A DNA stretch of 64,000 bases from Thermodesulfobacteriota bacterium. GTDB lineage: Bacteria > Desulfobacterota > Desulfobacteria > Desulfobacterales > UBA11574. Below are positions 3,370-43,253 of this stretch, piece after piece. A program made the position numbers and the translations under genes. Within the stretch, counting starts at the first letter, position 1. Each line of letters opens with the position of its first letter. A model generated the notes under the pieces. The model did no database searches. It had not been told where the DNA came from and saw only the letters and a program-made list of their open reading frames with translations. The stretch is from NCBI GenBank assembly GCA_042573625.1, contig JBHPCZ010000004.1:1148-65147 (forward strand), in the 5' to 3' direction.

Positions 3370-4424
3370 TATTCTTCGGTTGCAGGGGCAGTACTTGAAG
3401 TATATTTGTCCCATTCATACTTTCCGTATTTATAGTACCCCTGGACATTGTTAATCCTGGCGTCGATATCATTTTTGATGGGTATGACATTTCCGGCAAC
3501 CAACGGCTGAAGGTAATCGGCCAGCTCCATTGAACCGCCACCGGTCAGGACAATGGTATCCATGTCCCAGTCCTCGGCCCACAAACGTTCAATGTCGTTT
3601 GCAATGACACCGGCGGCATGTGAAAAGACCTGGTCTCTGAGCTTTTCGATATTGTATTCTTTTCCTCTTATTTTTATAACACCGGCTTGAACCGCCTTGT
3701 ACAGACGGTAGACTTCAATGCTAACGCCGCATTCTTCCCGAAGTTTTTTCGCAATAACGCCGAAGCTCTTCGAAATCCCGGTGTCGGTTGTCGTGCTGCC
3801 TCTTTCGACATAGCGTAATTGATCAAAAATGCTAAAATCCGTTGTTCTGAACCCGATATCCACCACGCCGACTTTTTGTTTTGCCAGCTCTTTGTTTACG
3901 ATTTTTCCATTATCATCCATCAACAGGTTAAAGATGCTTCCCAGCGGTTGCGGCATCATTCGAACCTTGTTGATATTTATCTTTCTCGTAATCTTGGTCC
4001 CATCGGGTTTGTGAAACGTAATATCGTGATGACCGGTCAATATTTTTACGAACTGCTGGTAATATTGCCTTAAATAGCCGATCGGGAGTCCGGAAACAAC
4101 ATTCATCGGCACATACTTTTCTGTTATGCTCCCTGCCGCCGTTAGCGCCAAAACCCTGAGAAACTCCGCCAACAGCTTTTCCTGGTCCAGGGTGAATTGC
4201 AGGACATTCGATTGCTGCTCCGCAAAATCACCAATAAAATAGGATTGGTTATCAATGGTAACATGCAGATTTTTCGCAAACGAAACATCCCCAATACTCA
4301 TCCGAAATTGGATGTCCGTCGCCTCCCCAAAGAGAGACTTGAATATAATGAATTCTTTTCCATTGGTGGCTTTTGTAAACCCAAACCCGACATCAATGCC
4401 AAGGATCTCCATCTCTTCCTCCAT
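3369..4424 (-). CDS. ParM/StbA family actin-like ATPase
   Basis: GIDVGFGFTK phosphate-1, VVDIGFRTTD phosphate-2 and LTGGG adenosine motifs. Confidence 0.9.
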   Translation of the reverse strand: MEEEMEILGIDVGFGFTKATNGKEFIIFKSLFGEATDIQFRMSIGDVSFAKNLHVTIDNQSYFIGDFAEQQSNVLQFTLDQEKLLAEFLRVLALTAAGSITEKYVPMNVVSGLPIGYLRQYYQQFVKILTGHHDITFHKPDGTKITRKININKVRMMPQPLGSIFNLLMDDNGKIVNKELAKQKVGVVDIGFRTTDFSIFDQLRYVERGSTTTDTGISKSFGVIAKKLREECGVSIEVYRLYKAVQAGVIKIRGKEYNIEKLRDQVFSHAAGVIANDIERLWAEDWDMDTIVLTGGGSMELADYLQPLVAGNVIPIKNDIDARINNVQGYYKYGKYEWDKYTSSTAPATEE

Positions 4425-4607
4425 GAACCGTAAAATTGCGGTTAATTTTCACTTTTACTCATTTATCATAAATTAAGGTGGATCAAAAGGATAAAAGTTT
4501 AATTTGACTTGAATTTTGTGTATAGAGAGTAGAGCGGAGTGATGTGTCCGCACAGGGTCAACCGATTGGCCGGCCCCCTTTTCGTTTCGTAACAAGGAAT
4601 TTGCCGC

Positions 4608-35352: not shown

Positions 35353-36128
35353 AATTTTTGTGTATTTCGGTTAACCAATGGCCTAAGCTGTTATGGGTTT
35401 CCATACCCTCAATCCCCGGTGACATAATTGAGAAAGGTTGCCGCATCGCGGGATTTGAATTCATGCAGGATCTTTTTGGTCATTTGATACCCCCGCAGAT
35501 TGTTCGTTACAGAAGTGCGCAAGGCTTTGCAAGAATCATCCGGACTGCTGGCTAGGACGACGGAGGAGCTGACGGGTTCAAAGATCGATGTGATCTCTTT
35601 AATCACTCCGGTAATAGCGGTCCATCCATATCACCCCATCCCGTCTCCGGTAAAACTGACCCTGCCCGAAGAACGGGAATTTTGAGGACTCAATAAAACA
35701 CATGTTGAATATTTTTTAAAGTCAGAATTCGACATTCTCGGGAAATTCCATTAAATGCTGTAACGGTTTTGGAATTGAGATGGTATGTTTCTCGGGGAGG
35801 TCTAATGCAAAATATCACCTGCATCGATAATGGACGGTAAAATCAAGGAGTATTCACTGTATCACACCGATAGTGCACTTTGAAAATGGACAGACAGGGT
35901 AGAAGTAAGGTTTAAGTGAAATTAAAATATATTGAGGTTTTCATATTTTTTTCATATACAAAATTGAAAAATAAGAATAAAAGCTTTAGCCTTGTGAATA
36001 ACTGGTCTGTTTGACTGACTTCGCTTATACTTGTGAACAGGTATAACTTTAATCCCTGTGAAGGCGATGTGTCGCGCATAGGAAATTGTTCGGCGGCATG
36101 TTAAAGAAAAGGAAATGAGGTGAATCGC

Positions 36129-36830
36129 ATGAAACGCCCAATATCTTTTGTTATTTTAGTGATTCTTTCAATAGGTGTTCTGTCTTCAGGATATGCCATC
36201 GCAGCGGATATGAATCCCAAAACCTTGGCCATTCTGCCTTTTGAAAACAATTCAGTGACAGATCCCGAACGTTTTGAACCTTTGACCAAGGGGCTTTCCG
36301 CCATGCTCATTACCGACCTGAATAACAGGCAGGACATTCTCAAGGTCATTGAACGCGAAAAAATTCAGTCCTTGTTGAAAGAAATCGCCCTGAGTCAGAG
36401 CGGCAGCGTGGACCAATCATCCGCCATACGGGCCGGTAAAATTCTCGGGGCACAATCGATTGCTTTCGGTTCTTTCATGGTGATTGGGAAGATGGTTCGC
36501 ATCGACACACGGATTATAAAGGTGGAAACCGGCGAACTGATTATGGCCGAATCAACAACCGGTGATACGCAAGGGTTCCTGAACCTCGAAAAGGAACTGG
36601 CCCAGAAGATTGCCGGATCGCTCGGGGTCGCCTTGCAGTCAAAAGATACCGGTTCAAGATCCGGTAAAGGCGCTTCGGAAAAGGAAATGGATGCCGCATT
36701 GCTGTATTCAAGAGGTTTAGATGCTTTAGATCGCGGCAACAAGAAAGAGGCCAGGAAACTGTTTAAGAAATGCATTGCCAAGGACGCTTCATACAAAGAG
36801 CGTATCGATAATATTAAAGGGTTGGAATAA
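36129..36830 (+). CDS. secreted CsgG/TolB-N-like protein with C-terminal TPR
   Basis: Signal peptide; TLAILPFEN, GLSAMLITDL, VIERE, AIRAGKILGA. Confidence 0.8.
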   Translation: MKRPISFVILVILSIGVLSSGYAIAADMNPKTLAILPFENNSVTDPERFEPLTKGLSAMLITDLNNRQDILKVIEREKIQSLLKEIALSQSGSVDQSSAIRAGKILGAQSIAFGSFMVIGKMVRIDTRIIKVETGELIMAESTTGDTQGFLNLEKELAQKIAGSLGVALQSKDTGSRSGKGASEKEMDAALLYSRGLDALDRGNKKEARKLFKKCIAKDASYKERIDNIKGLE

Positions 36831-37993
36831 TGAAAAAAATCATTACATTTTTTACAGTATTTGCAGTGGTTGCCTTTATCCCTCTGGCTGCTGTCGCCGC
36901 GAATAAAACAATAGAGGCCCAGGGGGAAAGCATGTCCTCTAAAGAAGATGCGCTTCGACAAGCGATGAGACTGGCCGTGGAACAGGCTGTGGGGGTGTTC
37001 GTCCACTCAGAAACCGAGGTCGAAAACTTCGAGCTGAAAAAGGACAAAATTCTGTCCCGGACCCAGGGGTATGTTACCAGCTACACCGTATTGAAAGAGG
37101 AGAAGGTCGATGATGTAATCAAGGTCGTCATCCGAGCTACAATTTCTCTGGACAAGATTAAAGATGACCTGCTTGCAATGAAGATTCTTCTCGACAGCAT
37201 GGAACGGCCCAAAGTGATGATTTTGATTAAGGAAAAATTATTAAGCGCAGATAAGGCGGGGGGGAAAATAGCAGAATCGGCAAAGGACGAGATGGAAATG
37301 CGCATCGCGGAAACAGAGATGTCCTCCCTGCTTGTAAGTAAAGGCTTTGATCTTGTGGACAAGGCCCAGCTGGAGGCGGTAAAAAATCTCGACCAGCGCC
37401 GGCAGGCTTTGGCCGGCAATACGGTTGCAGCCAAAAGCCTTGGGCTGAGTCTTGGGGCGCAGTATGTGATTTTGGGAAAGGCTGTGGCCCAAGACAGCGG
37501 TGAAGCTTATCCCGGAACCGGCTTGCGTTCTATTCAGGCCAGCCTGCAGACCAAGATCATACAGACTCAAACCGGCCTGGTTTTAGGGTCTGTAGTCAAA
37601 AGCGGCGTAGCGGCGCATATCAGCCCGCTGACCGGTGCCACAAAGGCACTGCAGGAAGCCGTCCACAAGGCGGTTGACCAATACCTTGTGAATGCCATTA
37701 CCGCTTCATTTCAGGATTATCTGAATAACGGTGCGCCTATGAAACTGCAAGTTACCGGCGTAAACAGCTTCCGCCAATACAAGCAAATAGTCTCCGGCAT
37801 CGATGCCCTGGACAATGTGGTCAGCAGCAAGAAGGAAGGCTGGAACAAGGCCGGCGGACTGCTCGTTCTCGACATGCGTTTTAAAGGTACAAGCGAGGAG
37901 CTGGCAGAACTGTTGGACGGCATACAATTGGGTGAAAACAGTCTTGAAGTCGTGGATTTTGCGCCGGAAAGAGTTGACTGTAATTTTAAATAA
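36830..37993 (+). CDS. secreted FlgT N-terminal-like domain protein
   Basis: DALRQAMRLAVEQAVGVFV...GYVTSYTV, PKVMI, GFDLVD; paralog of 8291-9475. Confidence 0.75.
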   Translation: MKKIITFFTVFAVVAFIPLAAVAANKTIEAQGESMSSKEDALRQAMRLAVEQAVGVFVHSETEVENFELKKDKILSRTQGYVTSYTVLKEEKVDDVIKVVIRATISLDKIKDDLLAMKILLDSMERPKVMILIKEKLLSADKAGGKIAESAKDEMEMRIAETEMSSLLVSKGFDLVDKAQLEAVKNLDQRRQALAGNTVAAKSLGLSLGAQYVILGKAVAQDSGEAYPGTGLRSIQASLQTKIIQTQTGLVLGSVVKSGVAAHISPLTGATKALQEAVHKAVDQYLVNAITASFQDYLNNGAPMKLQVTGVNSFRQYKQIVSGIDALDNVVSSKKEGWNKAGGLLVLDMRFKGTSEELAELLDGIQLGENSLEVVDFAPERVDCNFK

Positions 37994-38064
37994 AATCAAT
38001 TTGTTGCATTCATTTATATTCATTGTTCGGATTTTTCTATTATAAATAAACAAGGTGTCCTGTA

Positions 38065-39651
38065 ATGGACAAACAAAAAATGAAGCAGAGTATCCGAATC
38101 GCCGGTTTTGTGCCGATATGTTTTTTAATGATTCTTTTTTCCCAGGCCAGGGCGGAAAATTGCAAAGGCCTAGCTGAAGAAATTACCCACGGCGGCGTTC
38201 TGTGGACCCAAAATGCCGTTGTTGTTCAGGGCACTGCGGCTCCGGGACTCTCCAAAAACATGGACAAATCCATATCCGCAATCAAGCGACAGGCCAAAAG
38301 AGCGGCGACCATAGATGCATATCGAAAGCTGGCGGCTGTTCTTTCCGGCGTTCGGGTCACAAGTGAATCGCTTGCGGCTGACAACCCAAAGTTTATGGTT
38401 GAAATACAGGGGTTTGTGAGGCGTGCTGAAATCTGCAAATCAAAATTCTACGCAGATGGCGGCGTTGATATGGTTGTAACCGCACCGCTTTCCGATGCCT
38501 TTTCTATGGACAAACTCACTGCGGCGGGCAGAAAAGTCGCCAACGCCAAATCCAAGTTTACAGGGCTTGTTGTTGATGCCTCAAGCATTTCTTTTGCGCC
38601 GGCCTTGGCTCCCAGATTACTGGCCACTGACGGTTCGGTTTTATTCAGCCTGGAAAATGTAAAAAAAGAAGTTCTTGTGAACAGGGGAGCCGTTGTTTAC
38701 GCGAATAATATTGAGACGGTCGACCCGGAAATATTGGGCGGCAATCCTTTGAATACCCGGGCGATCGGGCTGGGCTCACTCACTCCAAGTGACCTGGTTA
38801 TTGCCTCCGAACCGGCCAACGTATTATCCGAATCTCCCGCTTTTCTGGGAGAAGGAAAGGTTGTTATCATCACAACGGCCACCCGGAACATTGAATGTAA
38901 AAATTTAGCCCCAAAAGTTAAAGACGCTCTGGTGGATTGGGAAAAAAGGATAATTCTCGCTTCCGGTACCGGCAAGATAGATTTTGAAAGGAAGCTGGAA
39001 ACGGCAACTCGCATCCGTATGCTGGAACGGGCGGCCGAAGTCGACGCCCAAAGAAAACTCCTGAAAGCCTTTTCACAAATCAATATTGCCGGCGATAAGA
39101 TGTTGAAAGACTTCCCTGGTGGGACTAGGCACACAATGGGTGTGGCCTTAAACGCCGTTCGCTGCGCCGCTAAATTTTTTAAAGATGGTACTGCCAAGGT
39201 TGTGATGGCTGCGCCAATAGACGGAATGGGGGTCAAGGGCGCAGAATTAGGCAAAAAGGGCGGATCAATTTTAAAAGTTTCAGAACTAAATGTTAGCGGG
39301 CTGATAGTGGATGCCGCCGGTTTAAAATTCAAACCAATATTAGCCCCCAGCCTCCTGGCCCCCGACGGTACTCGGGTTTTCGGATCAAACGTTGTCGCCA
39401 AAGCTTATGTTGAGCATTACGGTGTGGCCGGCTACCGGTCTTCCATCTCTGAGGCCACATCGGATAGAAGAATAGGGGATACCCCTGTTGTCGTTAAAGC
39501 GATAAATACCTCCGGTGATACGGGGCAATTGATACTGTCGGCTGAAGACGCCGAGAGGGTTGAGCAGCTGAAAAATAAAACCGGCCTGTTGAGCCAGGGG
39601 CGGGTTATTATTATCACTGAAAATACAATTGCGGAGATATTGCCAAGATGA
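38065..39651 (+). CDS. secreted tandem LPP20-like domain protein
   Basis: Internal duplication GLVVDAS..FAPALAP.L...DG / GLIVDAA..FKPILAP.L...DG. Confidence 0.72.
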   Translation: MDKQKMKQSIRIAGFVPICFLMILFSQARAENCKGLAEEITHGGVLWTQNAVVVQGTAAPGLSKNMDKSISAIKRQAKRAATIDAYRKLAAVLSGVRVTSESLAADNPKFMVEIQGFVRRAEICKSKFYADGGVDMVVTAPLSDAFSMDKLTAAGRKVANAKSKFTGLVVDASSISFAPALAPRLLATDGSVLFSLENVKKEVLVNRGAVVYANNIETVDPEILGGNPLNTRAIGLGSLTPSDLVIASEPANVLSESPAFLGEGKVVIITTATRNIECKNLAPKVKDALVDWEKRIILASGTGKIDFERKLETATRIRMLERAAEVDAQRKLLKAFSQINIAGDKMLKDFPGGTRHTMGVALNAVRCAAKFFKDGTAKVVMAAPIDGMGVKGAELGKKGGSILKVSELNVSGLIVDAAGLKFKPILAPSLLAPDGTRVFGSNVVAKAYVEHYGVAGYRSSISEATSDRRIGDTPVVVKAINTSGDTGQLILSAEDAERVEQLKNKTGLLSQGRVIIITENTIAEILPR

Positions 39652-40361
39652 AAGCATATTCGTCAATATTTATAATAACACTGGTATTTGCCATCATTCT
39701 ATCCCTGGCTGGGCCGGGTTTCGGCGCCCAGGTTGCCAGAGTGACGTATCTTAAAGCCGATGTTTTTATGGGCCACACGCAAAAAGGCCCTTGGCAGGCC
39801 TTGAAGAAAGGGTTGTCCGTCACCGAGGGCAAATTTATTAAAACAGGAAAAACGGGCGTTGTGGAACTGACATTGCCGGACAATTCTACAATACGCCTGT
39901 CAACCGGTACGATATTCAAGCTTAGCGATGTCCATTTCCCCGAAGGGGGGCCGCCGAAGTTTTCAGCAAAACTGTTTCTTGGGCGGATGTGGGCCAAAGT
40001 CAGCAGTGTTGTAAACGAAAAAAACGGTACCTTTGAGGCGCATCTCAACACAGCCGTGATCGGTGTGCGGGGCACTGTTTATAATCTGGATGTCGCTGCC
40101 GATACAAGCGCTGATGTTTCTGTGTTTGAAGGCATTGTCGGTGTCGGGCCGCCACTCTTTGTCAAGGGTGCCCCCAAAGAAGAAATTGCCTGGCCAATGG
40201 AAGTCACTGAGAAGAAGTGGGAGGAAATCATCCTAAAGCAGCTGCAGCGGTTGCATATTGGCGCTGACGGAAAACCGGGCAAGCCGGCATCTTTTGATCC
40301 TGTAAAGGAGAAAGACGAATGGATCCTGTGGAACCGGGAGCGGGATACCCACCCAACCTAA
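39648..40361 (+). CDS. FecR-domain protein
   Basis: IKTG..G.VEL...D.S.IRL, LFLGRMWA, TAVIGVRGT, VSVFEG.V. Confidence 0.88.
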   Translation: MKAYSSIFIITLVFAIILSLAGPGFGAQVARVTYLKADVFMGHTQKGPWQALKKGLSVTEGKFIKTGKTGVVELTLPDNSTIRLSTGTIFKLSDVHFPEGGPPKFSAKLFLGRMWAKVSSVVNEKNGTFEAHLNTAVIGVRGTVYNLDVAADTSADVSVFEGIVGVGPPLFVKGAPKEEIAWPMEVTEKKWEEIILKQLQRLHIGADGKPGKPASFDPVKEKDEWILWNRERDTHPT

Positions 40362-40426
40362 ATGCGTCTTTACATTTATGAATGGATATTTTTTTATGTA
40401 AGCCGATAACAGAAAGGAGTAAAGCC

Positions 40427-42082
40427 ATGTATAAGCGAAACATTTTACTTTTAGGCGTATTGTGCCTGTGTACTGTTCTTGCGGTGAACACGCCGGCATC
40501 GGCGTTTTTCGGACCGAGCAGCAAGGCCAAAAAAATGCTGAAACAGGAAAAATACGATGAGGCGATACCGCTTTATAAGGAGTATCTTTCTAAAAAACCC
40601 CATAAGTATAGGGCCAGAAATGAGTTGGGTTTTGCTTACCTAAAGACGGGTCGACTTGACGAGGCGATTAAAGAGTTTAATTCAGTGTTAAAGACCAAAC
40701 CCGGCAATCCTTACGCTGTTTTGTATATCGGGCTGGCACATGTCGCCAAAGGAGAGTTCGGCAAAGCTATCGATACCTGGCAGGGCTTTCGGGACAGGAA
40801 GAAGCCTTTGGTTGAAGAGGAAATCAGGGGCCAGCTGACGCTTTTGTTAATGCTTGAGAGTCAGAAGTCTGTTGAAAAAGCACTGGCGGAAGAAAAAAAG
40901 ATCAAAACAGTGAAATCTGATGCCAATACCGTCGCTGTCTGTTATTACCAGGATCTTTCTCCGGACAAGAGCCTGCGTGCGTTTCAAAAGGGCCTGGCGG
41001 CTATGGTGATTACTGATCTATCCAAAATCAAATCCCTCAAAGTCGTTGAAAGGTTGCGGCTTCAGGCGCTGTTGGCGGAGATGAAGCTTGGCCAGACAGG
41101 TATTGTGGACCCGCGTACCGCACCACGGGTGGGCAGGTTGCTGGGGGCTGAAAGTATTATTGTCGGCAATTTATCCAAGGGAACTGTTACGGCGACAACA
41201 ACAGGTGCCGGAAAGGCTAGCGGCACGAGCACTGTTTCGGTGGATGAAGAAAAGTTTTACGAATTGTCCAGAATTATAGTACGGGATATAGCAAAAATTT
41301 TAGGCATCGAATTGACGCCTGAGGAGGTAAAGGCTATCGGTATACCGCACACAAAGGTCTATAAGGCCTTTGTCCATTTCGGGAATGCTCTGGATGCCCT
41401 TGATGCCGGAAAGTGGAAAGAAGCCAAAAACTTTTTCAATAAGGCTTTGTTTGCTGACCCCAATTTTACGCTTGCCAGAGAGGGCGCTGGATCTTGTCCG
41501 GACTCGTCTTCACCGGGTATCAGCGCGTTGAGTAAACGGACCCCTGCTCAACTTGCGGCCCTATTTGAAAAGTTGATTGCCCTGAAGAAAGCCGCACAGG
41601 TCGAAGCCGATAAGGAAGCCCAGGAAGCAGCAGCAGCAAATGCATCAGGAGGAGGTTGTCTTGCTTATGACACTTTGGTTTATATGGCTGACAATTCCGT
41701 TAAACGCGTAATTGATGTGCGTGTTGGAGATATGGTCAAGGCCAGGGATTTGAAGAAGGGAAAAATGGTGTCCAGGAGGGTCAACTACAAGTATCGTGCA
41801 GACCAGGATCACTATTACATGATCAATGGAGAGCTCAAAGTCACGGGTACGCATCCGGTTTTAACGGACAATGGCAAATGGGTTCTGGTTTCAGACTTGC
41901 AGAAGGGTGACAGAATTGTAACTCTTGACGGTAAAACAGAAATCACCTCCTTTGAAAAAATGAAATATGACCATCGCGTTTACTACTTGAGCGTTGGGGA
42001 CAGCCATAACTATTTTGTTTCAGCCTATGGAAAGAATTTTTACCTGATTCATAATAGCGAAGGTGGCGGTGGCGGAAAATAG
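40427..42082 (+). CDS. secreted TPR + CsgG/TolB-N-like protein with C-terminal Hint domain
   Basis: AAGGAG RBS, signal peptide, TPRs, GLAAMVITDL..VVER, then CLAYDT...TGTHP...HNYFV...IHN-S. Confidence 0.88.
   Translation: MYKRNILLLGVLCLCTVLAVNTPASAFFGPSSKAKKMLKQEKYDEAIPLYKEYLSKKPHKYRARNELGFAYLKTGRLDEAIKEFNSVLKTKPGNPYAVLYIGLAHVAKGEFGKAIDTWQGFRDRKKPLVEEEIRGQLTLLLMLESQKSVEKALAEEKKIKTVKSDANTVAVCYYQDLSPDKSLRAFQKGLAAMVITDLSKIKSLKVVERLRLQALLAEMKLGQTGIVDPRTAPRVGRLLGAESIIVGNLSKGTVTATTTGAGKASGTSTVSVDEEKFYELSRIIVRDIAKILGIELTPEEVKAIGIPHTKVYKAFVHFGNALDALDAGKWKEAKNFFNKALFADPNFTLAREGAGSCPDSSSPGISALSKRTPAQLAALFEKLIALKKAAQVEADKEAQEAAAANASGGGCLAYDTLVYMADNSVKRVIDVRVGDMVKARDLKKGKMVSRRVNYKYRADQDHYYMINGELKVTGTHPVLTDNGKWVLVSDLQKGDRIVTLDGKTEITSFEKMKYDHRVYYLSVGDSHNYFVSAYGKNFYLIHNSEGGGGGK
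41657..42055 (+). other. Hint domain (mini-intein / bacterial intein-like), 133 aa
   Basis: Cys1 at 41657, block B TGTHP, block F VYYLSVGDSHNYFV, terminal His-Asn, Ser at +1; no endonuclease insert. Confidence 0.9.
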
Positions 42083-42611: not shown

Positions 42612-43253
42612 TTAAGCACTGCCTGCGGTTCTTTTCAGGCGGTCGGTAAAAATTCCTCCCAGTATGGCCAGGGATTCCGCATCCAGATATTTTTCCGCAC
42701 GCCTTTCAAACAGTACCGAGCAATTGGACGGGAAATCATCATCTGCATCATTGAAAAGCATTAAAAGCGGCACCTTCGGCAGCGGATCGAATCGCATGAT
42801 TAAATCGTACGAAAGTTGGATGTCGGGACGAGTACCGCCGAGCGCTACACAGGCTTTTTCAAGATCACCGGCCAAGCCTGAAAAAGTCATGGCAATCGGG
42901 TTTTCTACGTTGCTTGCAAAAAAATGGGTCAAAGGACCTGAATCTTTAAAATCCCGGTAGGAGACCCAGTCGCTCTCTTGCGGATAACCGGCCGGGCATA
43001 ACAGGAGGTATTTACAAAGAACAACGCATGTCCCGAAGTCGGGTCGCTTGTCGGAAGGGTCTGCAATGCCGCTTGAGGAAAACCGATAGGATTTGCCGAA
43101 AAACGGAACGACAATCTCATGACCTTCTAATTTCACACCGATCCTGTCCTGCTTGGTACTGAAATCAATGTTCGAGATCTGAGCCAGATATTCGGTGTAT
43201 GTTTTTTTAAACACGGTAGATTTTTCAGATGGTCTATTTTTTTCTGTTTTCAT
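42612..43253 (-). CDS. DUF3786 family protein
   Basis: WVSYRDF, PLPKVP...DADDDFP..C.VLF, YLDAESL. Confidence 0.85.
   Translation of the reverse strand: MKTEKNRPSEKSTVFKKTYTEYLAQISNIDFSTKQDRIGVKLEGHEIVVPFFGKSYRFSSSGIADPSDKRPDFGTCVVLCKYLLLCPAGYPQESDWVSYRDFKDSGPLTHFFASNVENPIAMTFSGLAGDLEKACVALGGTRPDIQLSYDLIMRFDPLPKVPLLMLFNDADDDFPSNCSVLFERRAEKYLDAESLAILGGIFTDRLKRTAGSA

Follow-up and report, generated by a model that had tools for sequence, protein, structure and literature searches.

A cargo-less C-terminal Hint domain with a Gly-rich, Lys-ended tail on a predicted envelope protein of a Desulfobacterales bacterium

Three roles of Hint domains have been described: some are inteins in cytoplasmic enzymes, others release a toxin cargo, and in hedgehog the Hint is the half of the protein that attaches a lipid. 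We analyzed a stretch of 64,000 nucleotides (hereafter the window) from a Thermodesulfobacteriota bacterium of the Desulfobacterales (assembly GCA_042573625.1, contig JBHPCZ010000004.1, positions 1,148 to 65,147), in which one gene, called g5, encodes a protein (P0001) that ends in a complete Hint domain followed by only eight residues. We infer that the g5 product is an exported envelope protein made of TPRs and a CsgG/LpoB-like domain. What appears to be new is the use of a HINT autoprocessing domain as a C-terminal cassette without cargo, with Gly↓Cys at its entry and Gly(n)-Lys at its exit (arrows mark the junctions); as judged from alignments, this feature is real and well conserved.

The window Hint and the described HINT systems

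Several described systems resemble this Hint in part. Bacterial intein-like (BIL) domains comprise 130-155 aa, end in a C-terminal His-Asn and stand in a variable region of secreted bacterial proteins (Amitai 2003 and Dassa 2004, as cited in passages of PMC7765530 and PMC9185962); as a rule they have no nucleophile at +1 and yield cleavage products for the most part (passages of PMC7765530, PMC9185962 and PMC7664689). The window Hint is like an A-type BIL domain in its 133 aa, its His-Asn end, its exported host, its unconserved site and its lack of an endonuclease, and it would in principle be able to cleave or splice. Unlike BIL domains as described in these review passages, its +1 residue is a nucleophile, Ser in this protein and Ser, Thr or Cys in most relatives. 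Neither a Gly(n)-Lys-COOH tail nor a strictly C-terminal position is mentioned in the passages on BIL domains of the three reviews. More generally, the full texts searched contained no account of a C-terminal Hint without cargo and with a Gly(n)-Lys tail; the search did not extend to the original BIL articles (Amitai 2003, Dassa 2004, Dori-Bachash 2009) and Chiarini 2021, and these may bear on the claim.

The pretoxin HINT of polymorphic toxin systems is also close, since PT-HINT is the top Pfam family of the window Hint, but unlike in these systems there is no C-terminal toxin or candidate immunity gene. With class-1 mini-inteins (NpuDnaB, 4o1r; Pho RadA, 4e2u), the window Hint shares Cys1, TxxH, HNF, HN and the +1 Ser, the mini size without endonuclease and the existence of Hint-less alleles. 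It differs from them in three ways: its host is an exported envelope protein and not a cytoplasmic nucleic-acid enzyme; its site lies at the extreme C-terminus and not in a conserved active site, with a C-extein that belongs to the cassette; and it gives no sign of transfer between hosts. Like hedgehog (1at0), it is a C-terminal HINT predicted to process the secreted protein upstream of it, with a Gly before the catalytic Cys, whereas no sterol-recognition region follows it, only SEGGGGGK. Hedgehog does not use His-Asn and a +1 nucleophile, both of which are present in the window Hint (passages of PMC7664689). Finally, as in BIL2 of the BUBL1 locus (6tmm/6y75), there is a Gly as acyl donor and a Lys available downstream; in contrast, BIL2 is eukaryotic and stands between ubiquitin-like domains, while the upstream part of the window protein consists of TPRs, a CsgG-like domain and helices.

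The junctions of the window protein read ...ANASGGG↓C411LAYDT...LIH542N543↓S544EGGGGGK-stop, Cys1 being Cys411 (nt 41657) and the terminal Asn being Asn543 (nt 42053-42055). Besides Cys411, the Hint contains T473-x-x-H476 in block B, H527-N528 (HNF) in block F, H542-N543 and Ser544 at +1, so that every residue by which class-1 inteins are recognized (Cys1, TxxH, His-Asn and Ser at +1) is present. When 24 Hint-bearing homologs were aligned, T473-x-x-H476, H527-N528 and H542-N543 were found to be invariant or nearly so. The profile search proposed in the preliminary description of this locus returned three families above their cut-offs: PT-HINT (PF07591), the best-scoring one, over residues 425-543 (E 4.7e-11, 43.5 bits vs a cut-off of 27.7), Hint (PF01079, 32.2 bits vs 29.7) and Vint (32.1 vs 27). 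No curated NCBIfam model was found for the cassette, only sub-threshold intein matches, and no second PT-HINT was detected by profile search of the genome (84.6% complete). In the sequence atlas, the neighbours of the Hint are PT-HINT clusters, and by sequence its nearest solved relative is the Pho RadA mini-intein (4e2u, E 3.5e-6).

The Hint alone was modelled by AlphaFold2 (AF2) with a predicted local distance difference test score (pLDDT) of 93.1. The best structural match of this model was BIL2 (6tmm; Z 20.6, root-mean-square deviation 1.4, 133 residues aligned, 22% identity), followed by the BIL domain of Clostridium thermocellum (2lwy; Z 20.0, deviation 1.4, 129 aligned), the NpuDnaB mini-intein (4o1r, Z 18.8) and hedgehog (1at0, Z 18.3), and Foldseek gave a similar order (BIL2, E 2e-9). 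According to the model, the window Hint has the HINT fold; these Z scores spread over less than 2.5 units, so its subtype is left unassigned.

Upstream of the Hint, TPR families cover approximately residues 38-109 (e.g., TPR_2, E 5.8e-16), and the CsgG match over residues 168-269 has an E of 4.8e-12 and 46.1 bits vs a cut-off of 20.8 (Pfam). The AF2 model of the whole protein (pLDDT 86.6, predicted TM score 0.81) shows the linker 401-410 and the last six residues as disordered. The putative signal peptide, read by eye, is MYKRNILLLGVLCLCTVLAVNTPASA, cut before FF. A lipobox was found by a simple regular expression in 89 of the 120 homologs described below; P0001-P0004 lack it and have a site resembling that of signal peptidase I instead. 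The start at position 40427 is also backed by P0002-P0004, whose N-termini are MYKRN. Thus, the anatomy given in the preliminary description (signal peptide by eye, TPRs, CsgG-like domain, Ala-rich helix, ASGGG, 133-aa Hint, eight-residue tail) was confirmed by Pfam, AF2 and the sequence.

The absence of cargo, also claimed at that time, was borne out as well. The stop codon is followed by 529 nt of non-coding DNA and then by a convergent gene for a DUF3786 protein (42612-43253, minus strand), and no cargo-like frame was seen after the stop in any of the three frames. No toxin domain after the Hint and no candidate immunity gene were found, the eight residues being followed by the stop and then by the DUF3786 gene. 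A cargo hidden by a frameshift or by read-through was considered and rejected, since reading the three downstream frames revealed nothing of the kind and Rfam gave 0 matches on the whole window.

A C-terminal cassette on unrelated exported proteins

The homolog set consisted of the best 120 of 423 proteins. Hint carriers rank high in it by aligning over more of the query, and the proportion of 33 in 120 therefore overstates their share of the family; 32 of these Hints are complete, and the other 87 homologs have none. The incomplete one (P0039) was dropped from the Hint alignments and the tail counts and kept in the host-part tree, and tail classes were assigned by simple regular expressions. 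The 32 complete Hints align without indels, with Cys1 in 32/32 and His-Asn in 30/32. Gly stands at -1 in 19 of them, with Asp (5), Ala (5) or Ser (3) in the others. At +1, we observed Ser (13), Cys (7), Thr (5) and Asp (1), Ser, Cys or Thr being present in 25 of the 30 members that keep HN. Lys is the last residue in 25 of the 32 carriers, with tails such as SK, CK or S/T/C-Gly(n)-K; four end at His-Asn, one ends in SKGH and two have degenerate ends. The insertion site is the unconserved extreme C-terminus of the protein. A Gly-rich tail is found in 69 of the 87 Hint-less homologs, with His (31), Tyr (15), Gly (12), Cys (7) or another residue (4) in last position, unlike the S/T/C...K of the cassette.

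The Hint with its tail was then searched against 1.84 billion representatives, which gave 5602 matches at E up to 0.001. Among 149 new proteins from the best 150 of these matches, 66 have the His-Asn within their last 32 residues; Lys is the last residue of 43 of the 66 (a Gly-rich tail in 32, K or one residue and K in 8, another tail in 3), 2 stop at His-Asn and 21 have other tails. A profile built from 35 small cassette proteins retrieved 98 proteins, 91 of them new. This small-lipoprotein set mostly comprises proteins of 250-330 residues, and most of its N-terminally complete members look, by eye, lipobox-bearing and have a helical or coiled-coil middle part. The terminal His-Asn is present in 84 of the 91 and missing in 7, and 77 of the 84 end in Lys. 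Ser (43), Thr (26) and Cys (5) together account for 74/84 of their +1 residues, 6 others being Lys, and Gly stands at -1 in 70 of the 79 proteins with a Cys1 match, the remaining 12 of the 91 giving none.

The junctions of these proteins resemble those of the window protein, as in the coiled-coil lipoproteins L030 and L034 (...GA↓CFTPDT...LVHN↓TGGGGGGK) and L035 (...RG↓CFPPDT...LVHN↓SSGGGGGAK). The Hint-Gly(n)-Lys cassette also closes fusions with a FecR domain (P0336-P0341, 453-499 aa), and two proteins with many Pfam families of the beta-propeller type, including PF07676 (P0346/P0347), have 'K' as their tail. In 301 sampled genomes of the phylum, a Hint of this clade was found in 18 (E up to 1e-15), mostly in large proteins of 640-1070 residues and once in a small lipoprotein. 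Altogether, these comparisons show, at the level of sequence, that unrelated exported proteins repeatedly end in a cassette of the form Gly↓Cys-Hint-HisAsn↓Ser/Thr/Cys-Gly(n)-Lys-COOH. Because the same tail rule is found on unrelated hosts, the tail belongs to the cassette rather than to the host, and it therefore differs from the tails of Hint-less orthologs.

Other features were noticed among the matches. In P0137, P0142, P0195, P0212, P0242, P0252 and P0268, a Hint of the same clade comes directly after a signal peptide and '...RGGGG↓C', and a large C-terminal domain comes after the Hint; in this layout, the upstream part would consist of no more than a few Gly, and the Hint would free the N-terminus of its cargo. 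Two to seven tandem Hints were seen in proteins of 700 to more than 3000 aa (P0122, P0126, P0136, P0169 and others; G253, G344, G401, G410). In many small-lipoprotein carriers, the His of block B is replaced by Glu (T-x-x-E; ...TAYERF, ...TGGERL), and a His 14 residues upstream of this position ((D/N)HYY, Hint His52) as well as Asn57 are invariant or nearly so; T-x-x-E with the conserved His52 and Asn57 may form a variant catalytic arrangement. A word-based search for short proteins with a part of the Hint gave only one fragment. Finally, the FecR gene of the window was considered as an ortholog of the FecR-Hint fusions and rejected (25% identity over the FecR domain, E 0.003, in a single comparison).

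Inheritance, loss and gene neighbourhood

The presence and absence of the Hint imply 15 changes on the host-part tree, at least 6 of them forced by well-supported branches (FastTree), and close relatives differ, e.g., P0006 with and P0036 without the Hint. The Hint tree contains the same clades as the host tree. Mean pairwise identity is 62% for the Hint vs 57% for the host part, the Hint being thus no less conserved than its host, with a Pearson r of 0.83 between the two parts, and the GC content at third codon positions (GC3) is 0.489 for the Hint vs 0.507 for the host part. The Hint tree supports a clade of Gly(n)-Lys-tailed carriers with which the host-part data are compatible (approximately unbiased (AU) test, p 0.30). 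With congruent trees and an AU test that leaves such a clade standing, nothing points to a movement of the Hint from host to host. Transfer between family members, taken as an alternative, is unsupported though not disproved by the congruent trees, the AU test and the similar GC3, and the simplest reading of these sequences would be co-inheritance with the host gene and repeated loss.

A loss was read in the DNA itself. On a contig of a Desulfonema-like genome (L068, positions 840-960), a Hint-less gene ends with ...GGKGGGGH followed by two stops, and the same frame continues with NNFRIRESQSHYVSGCNKEMYLLDNSK and a stop, that is, the recognizable last 27 residues of the Hint with an SK tail. 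Over 213 nt, L068 is 80% identical to the Hint 3' end, the stop codon and the intergenic DNA of the Hint-bearing L036. In this alignment, the codon for the last residue of GGGGH falls on that of Hint His106, in the ...DHRVYNF... motif, and the two stops fall on the two codons after it. L042 (9090-9200) has this junction too (CAT TAA GAG AAT AAT TTC), in a further decayed state. Given this dead Hint 3' end in L068, the Hint was therefore present in the ancestor and deleted in that clade. As read from these alignments, the GGGGH tail of L068 and L042 is a deletion scar common to at least two genomes, and its origin is an in-frame deletion of Hint residues 1-105 with nonsense changes afterwards. 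Many homologs from this part of the tree that lack the Hint also end in GGGGH, which suggests a single old event.

Remnants of the Hint behind Hint-less genes were looked for by tblastn (E up to 10) in 69 loci, and only L036, L024, L030 and one weak match were obtained. The weak match (E 4.9) led to the L068 scar, and reading through the tails added only L042. No Hint scar was demonstrated in this way for tails ending in Tyr, Cys or Gly, and no tie to the Hint was found for a conserved '...RGVR-stop-TP-stop-K' behind the tails of L004, L039, L043, L045 and L065. A decayed relative is present in the complete genome of Desulfonema magnum 4be13 (chromosome, L079:8001-8956, the same as L033 and L024), where the TPR part and the linker are joined to the Hint without the CsgG-like domain, the Hint carries one frameshift and the protein ends with ...LVHN-stop. 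The Hint form is rare in species-representative genomes: in the order, 34 of 151 gave a match and the full-length form was found only in the genome of the window; among the 40 related loci L036-L075, only L036 has the Hint.

These data bear on two points of the preliminary description. The similar Gly-rich tail to be looked for in Hint-less homologs exists in 69 of 87 as far as Gly is concerned; the similarity does not extend to the last residue, which is never Lys and which in one clade is the His of the deletion scar. A sporadic Hint with unconserved flanks had been named as what would speak against the proposal. The Hint is indeed sporadic (the 15 changes above, at least 6 forced); the flanks are conserved, with Gly at -1 in 19/32 family members and 70/79 of the small-lipoprotein set, and Lys at the end in 25/32 and 77/84, respectively.

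In the window, g5 is the last of five co-directional genes of the plus strand (36120-42082; Table 1). In most related loci, orthologs of g1 adjoin those of g5, and orthologs of g2 (59-65% identical) follow g1. Because the order g5-g1-g2 is found in most related loci that are long enough (metagenome-assembled genomes of Desulfobacterales, Syntrophales and Desulfatiglandales), the g5 host protein is a conserved part of an envelope gene cluster in this bacterial group. The gene order of the window is different: the TPR-CsgG gene precedes g1-g2 in most relatives (L038-L073) and comes last, after g3 and the FecR gene, in the window. Some related loci have two tandem copies of g5. The Pfam matches of g2 are all below the cut-offs (FlgT_N 27.4 bits vs 28.8, LpoB 19.9 vs 22.3). 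Two halves of g3, residues 15-285 and 281-517, match one and the same stretch of L037, which suggests an internal duplication.

Table 1. Position of g5, of the parts of its product and of the preceding genes in the window.
Feature	Position (nt)	Strand	Basis or remark
g1: CsgG-like and TPR protein, 236 aa	36120..36830	+	Pfam CsgG, E 1.1e-12
g2: FlgT_N / LpoB-like / DUF6175-like exported protein, 387 aa	36830..37993	+	weak Pfam matches
g3: exported protein, 528 aa	38065..39651	+	no Pfam or NCBIfam family
g4: FecR-domain protein, 237 aa	39648..40361	+	Pfam FecR, E 2e-11
Open reading frame	40382..42082	+	reading-frame listing
Shine-Dalgarno-like AAAGGAG	40413..40419	+	read from sequence; 7 nt before the ATG at 40427
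Coding sequence of the Hint protein (g5, P0001)	40427..42082	+	551 aa by translation
Putative signal peptide, residues 1-26, resembling a signal peptidase I substrate (...NTPASA↓FF)	40427..40504	+	by eye
N-terminal TPR region, ~residues 30-120	40514..40786	+	Pfam TPR families; AF2 helices 30-118, pLDDT ~90-97
CsgG/LpoB-like alpha/beta domain, residues 168-269	40928..41233	+	Pfam CsgG; AF2 strands 165-176, 241-272
Second helical TPR-like region, ~residues 274-356	41246..41494	+	AF2 helices
Long Ala-rich helix, residues 373-399	41543..41623	+	AF2 helix
Flexible linker ending ASGGG, residues 400-410; Gly410 is the -1 residue	41624..41656	+	pLDDT 55 for 401-410
Hint autoprocessing domain, residues 411-543	41657..42055	+	Pfam PT-HINT, Hint, Vint; HINT fold
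C-extein SEGGGGGK: Ser544 (+1 nucleophile), Gly run, terminal Lys551	42056..42079	+	sequence; tail type conserved
Stop codon TAG	42080..42082	+	sequence

Possible chemistry of the cassette

In our view, there is an even chance that the cassette removes itself, probably by splicing, and leaves a Gly-rich tail ended by Lys. After export and folding, Cys411 would attack the carbonyl of Gly410 (N-S acyl shift), the acyl group would pass to Ser544, cyclization of Asn543 would free the 133-residue Hint, and an O-N shift would leave ...ASGGG-SEGGGGGK. A fraction might be resolved by hydrolysis instead, giving ...ASGGG-COOH. Splicing to GGG-SEGGGGGK would be the best fit to the conserved Ser, Thr or Cys at +1, and it is favoured because only its transesterification step explains why these residues are kept. 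Release of the octapeptide, one of the purposes proposed in the preliminary description, is unlikely, since tails consisting of K, SK or CK, or no tail at all, occur in the same family.

Several observations weigh against splicing. The chemistry is deduced from motifs, and the tail is disordered in both AF2 models, which are thus uninformative on its reach to the active site. None of the 69 Gly-rich tails of Hint-less homologs ends in Lys; since Hint-less orthologs never do so, the spliced product would differ from the Hint-less protein. P0023 and the clade of P0025, P0026 and P0029 end at HN, yet keep Cys1, TxxH and HN. Ligation to a C-extein is therefore not the selected activity of these proteins, and what is selected in them must be, to judge from the residues kept, thioester formation or N-terminal cleavage. 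The +1 residue is Asp in P0005 and Gly or Lys in some cassette proteins outside the family, and even tails that start with Gly, or with the Lys itself, have Lys at their end. Moreover, a Gly-Lys tail could be encoded directly, and splicing alone leaves the retention of the Hint unexplained.

It is less likely, although worth weighing, that the cassette performs a ligation as in hedgehog, in which the Gly410 thioester would be resolved by an amine or hydroxyl of the envelope from outside the protein (such as the free amine of a stem peptide of peptidoglycan, the head group of a lipid or a Lys in a partner protein) and the N-terminal part would become covalently anchored, the tail being a helper or having no role. 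The strong preference for Gly at -1 both in the family (19/32) and in the small-lipoprotein set (70/79) speaks for this. A Gly before the cleavage site is common to hedgehog and ubiquitin-type substrates. The hedgehog 'GCF' site was looked for in PMC9163320 and not found. The P0025/P0026/P0029 clade, which lacks a C-extein, keeps the N-terminal catalytic residues, the C-terminal domain of hedgehog is among the best structural matches (Z 18.3), and all carriers are exported envelope proteins, many of them small coiled-coil lipoproteins. The latter share a lipobox, a coiled coil and a C-terminal Lys with Braun's lipoprotein (Lpp), whose architecture is thus like theirs, and the genome has one gene for a YkuD-type L,D-transpeptidase. 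Unlike Lpp, the window protein has no lipobox, is TPR/CsgG-like and shows no sequence relation to it, and a peptidoglycan linkage is conjectural. A ligation of this kind has difficulties of its own: only 0-20 residues follow the Hint, leaving no substrate-recognition region; neither the conserved Ser, Thr or Cys at +1 nor the terminal Lys would be needed; and most orthologs have no Hint. Nor was a conserved partner gene found, none being common to the three small-lipoprotein loci compared (L030, L035 and L115). At L035, a lipoprotein gene with Sel1 repeats and PG_binding_1 (3691-4521, minus strand; E 3.1e-16) lies directly downstream of the small Hint lipoprotein gene, and this neighbour was not seen at the two other loci checked.

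Splicing through an isopeptide bond, as in BUBL, appears distinctly improbable. Here the side-chain amine of Lys551, brought in by the flexible Gly run, would attack the thioester, and after Asn cyclization the N-terminal part would be joined to Lys by an isopeptide bond, with SEGGGGG carrying an open amino end. BIL2 forms such a bond between a Lys side chain and a C-terminus (passages of PMC8616854). No feature of the tail is as conserved as its terminal Lys, which is there even with Gly or Lys at +1 (K, GK, GGGGK), and the top structural match is BIL2, from the Tetrahymena BUBL1 locus (Z 20.6; Foldseek E 2e-9). However, BIL2, the Clostridium BIL domain and the mini-intein score within less than 2 Z units and are barely separable, BIL2 and the window Hint are only 22% identical, the N-terminal part bears no likeness to ubiquitin, and the conserved Ser, Thr or Cys at +1 is already explained by ordinary splicing. 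Finally, we hold it very improbable that there is no processing, with the Hint silent in the periplasm (e.g., through oxidation of Cys411), a binding or structural domain, or a decaying remnant: the frameshifted Hint of the decayed Desulfonema magnum copy, in a gene without the CsgG domain, the loss of HN in P0027 and P0034 and the frequent loss of the Hint would fit, but the window copy has an open frame and all catalytic residues intact, and HN in 30/32 and Cys1 in 32/32 members would not be expected for a mere binding domain.

Since it is found on unrelated exported proteins and is inherited with its host gene and repeatedly deleted, the cassette would be an old accessory maturation module and not a cargo-releasing device. 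The Hint without cargo at the C-terminal end of exported envelope proteins, with a Gly before it and a short Gly tail and a Lys behind it, represents a fourth, recurrent use of this domain, and the tail rule across unrelated hosts makes its chemistry directly testable. If the cassette merely excises itself, as in the self-removal that we favour, it is an intein-like element of the periplasm that is vertically inherited and lost by deletion, with one scar visible in the DNA. We also put forward, as an unlikely but far-reaching proposal, that the cassette could be an enzyme-free and ATP-free ligation device of the envelope, in which an amine, either of its own terminal Lys or of the peptidoglycan stem peptide, resolves the Gly thioester. 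Resolution by its own Lys would give an isopeptide lariat as in Tetrahymena BUBL; with the peptidoglycan amine, bacteria of the Desulfobacterota type would have a self-catalysed counterpart of the Braun-lipoprotein tether. Such a device would explain the presence of the cassette on coiled-coil lipoproteins and on TolB-, FecR- and CsgG-like envelope proteins. If an envelope amine does take the thioester, this would be a new way of covalently fixing proteins in the Gram-negative envelope, and the cassette would be a compact natural tool for C-terminal protein ligation.

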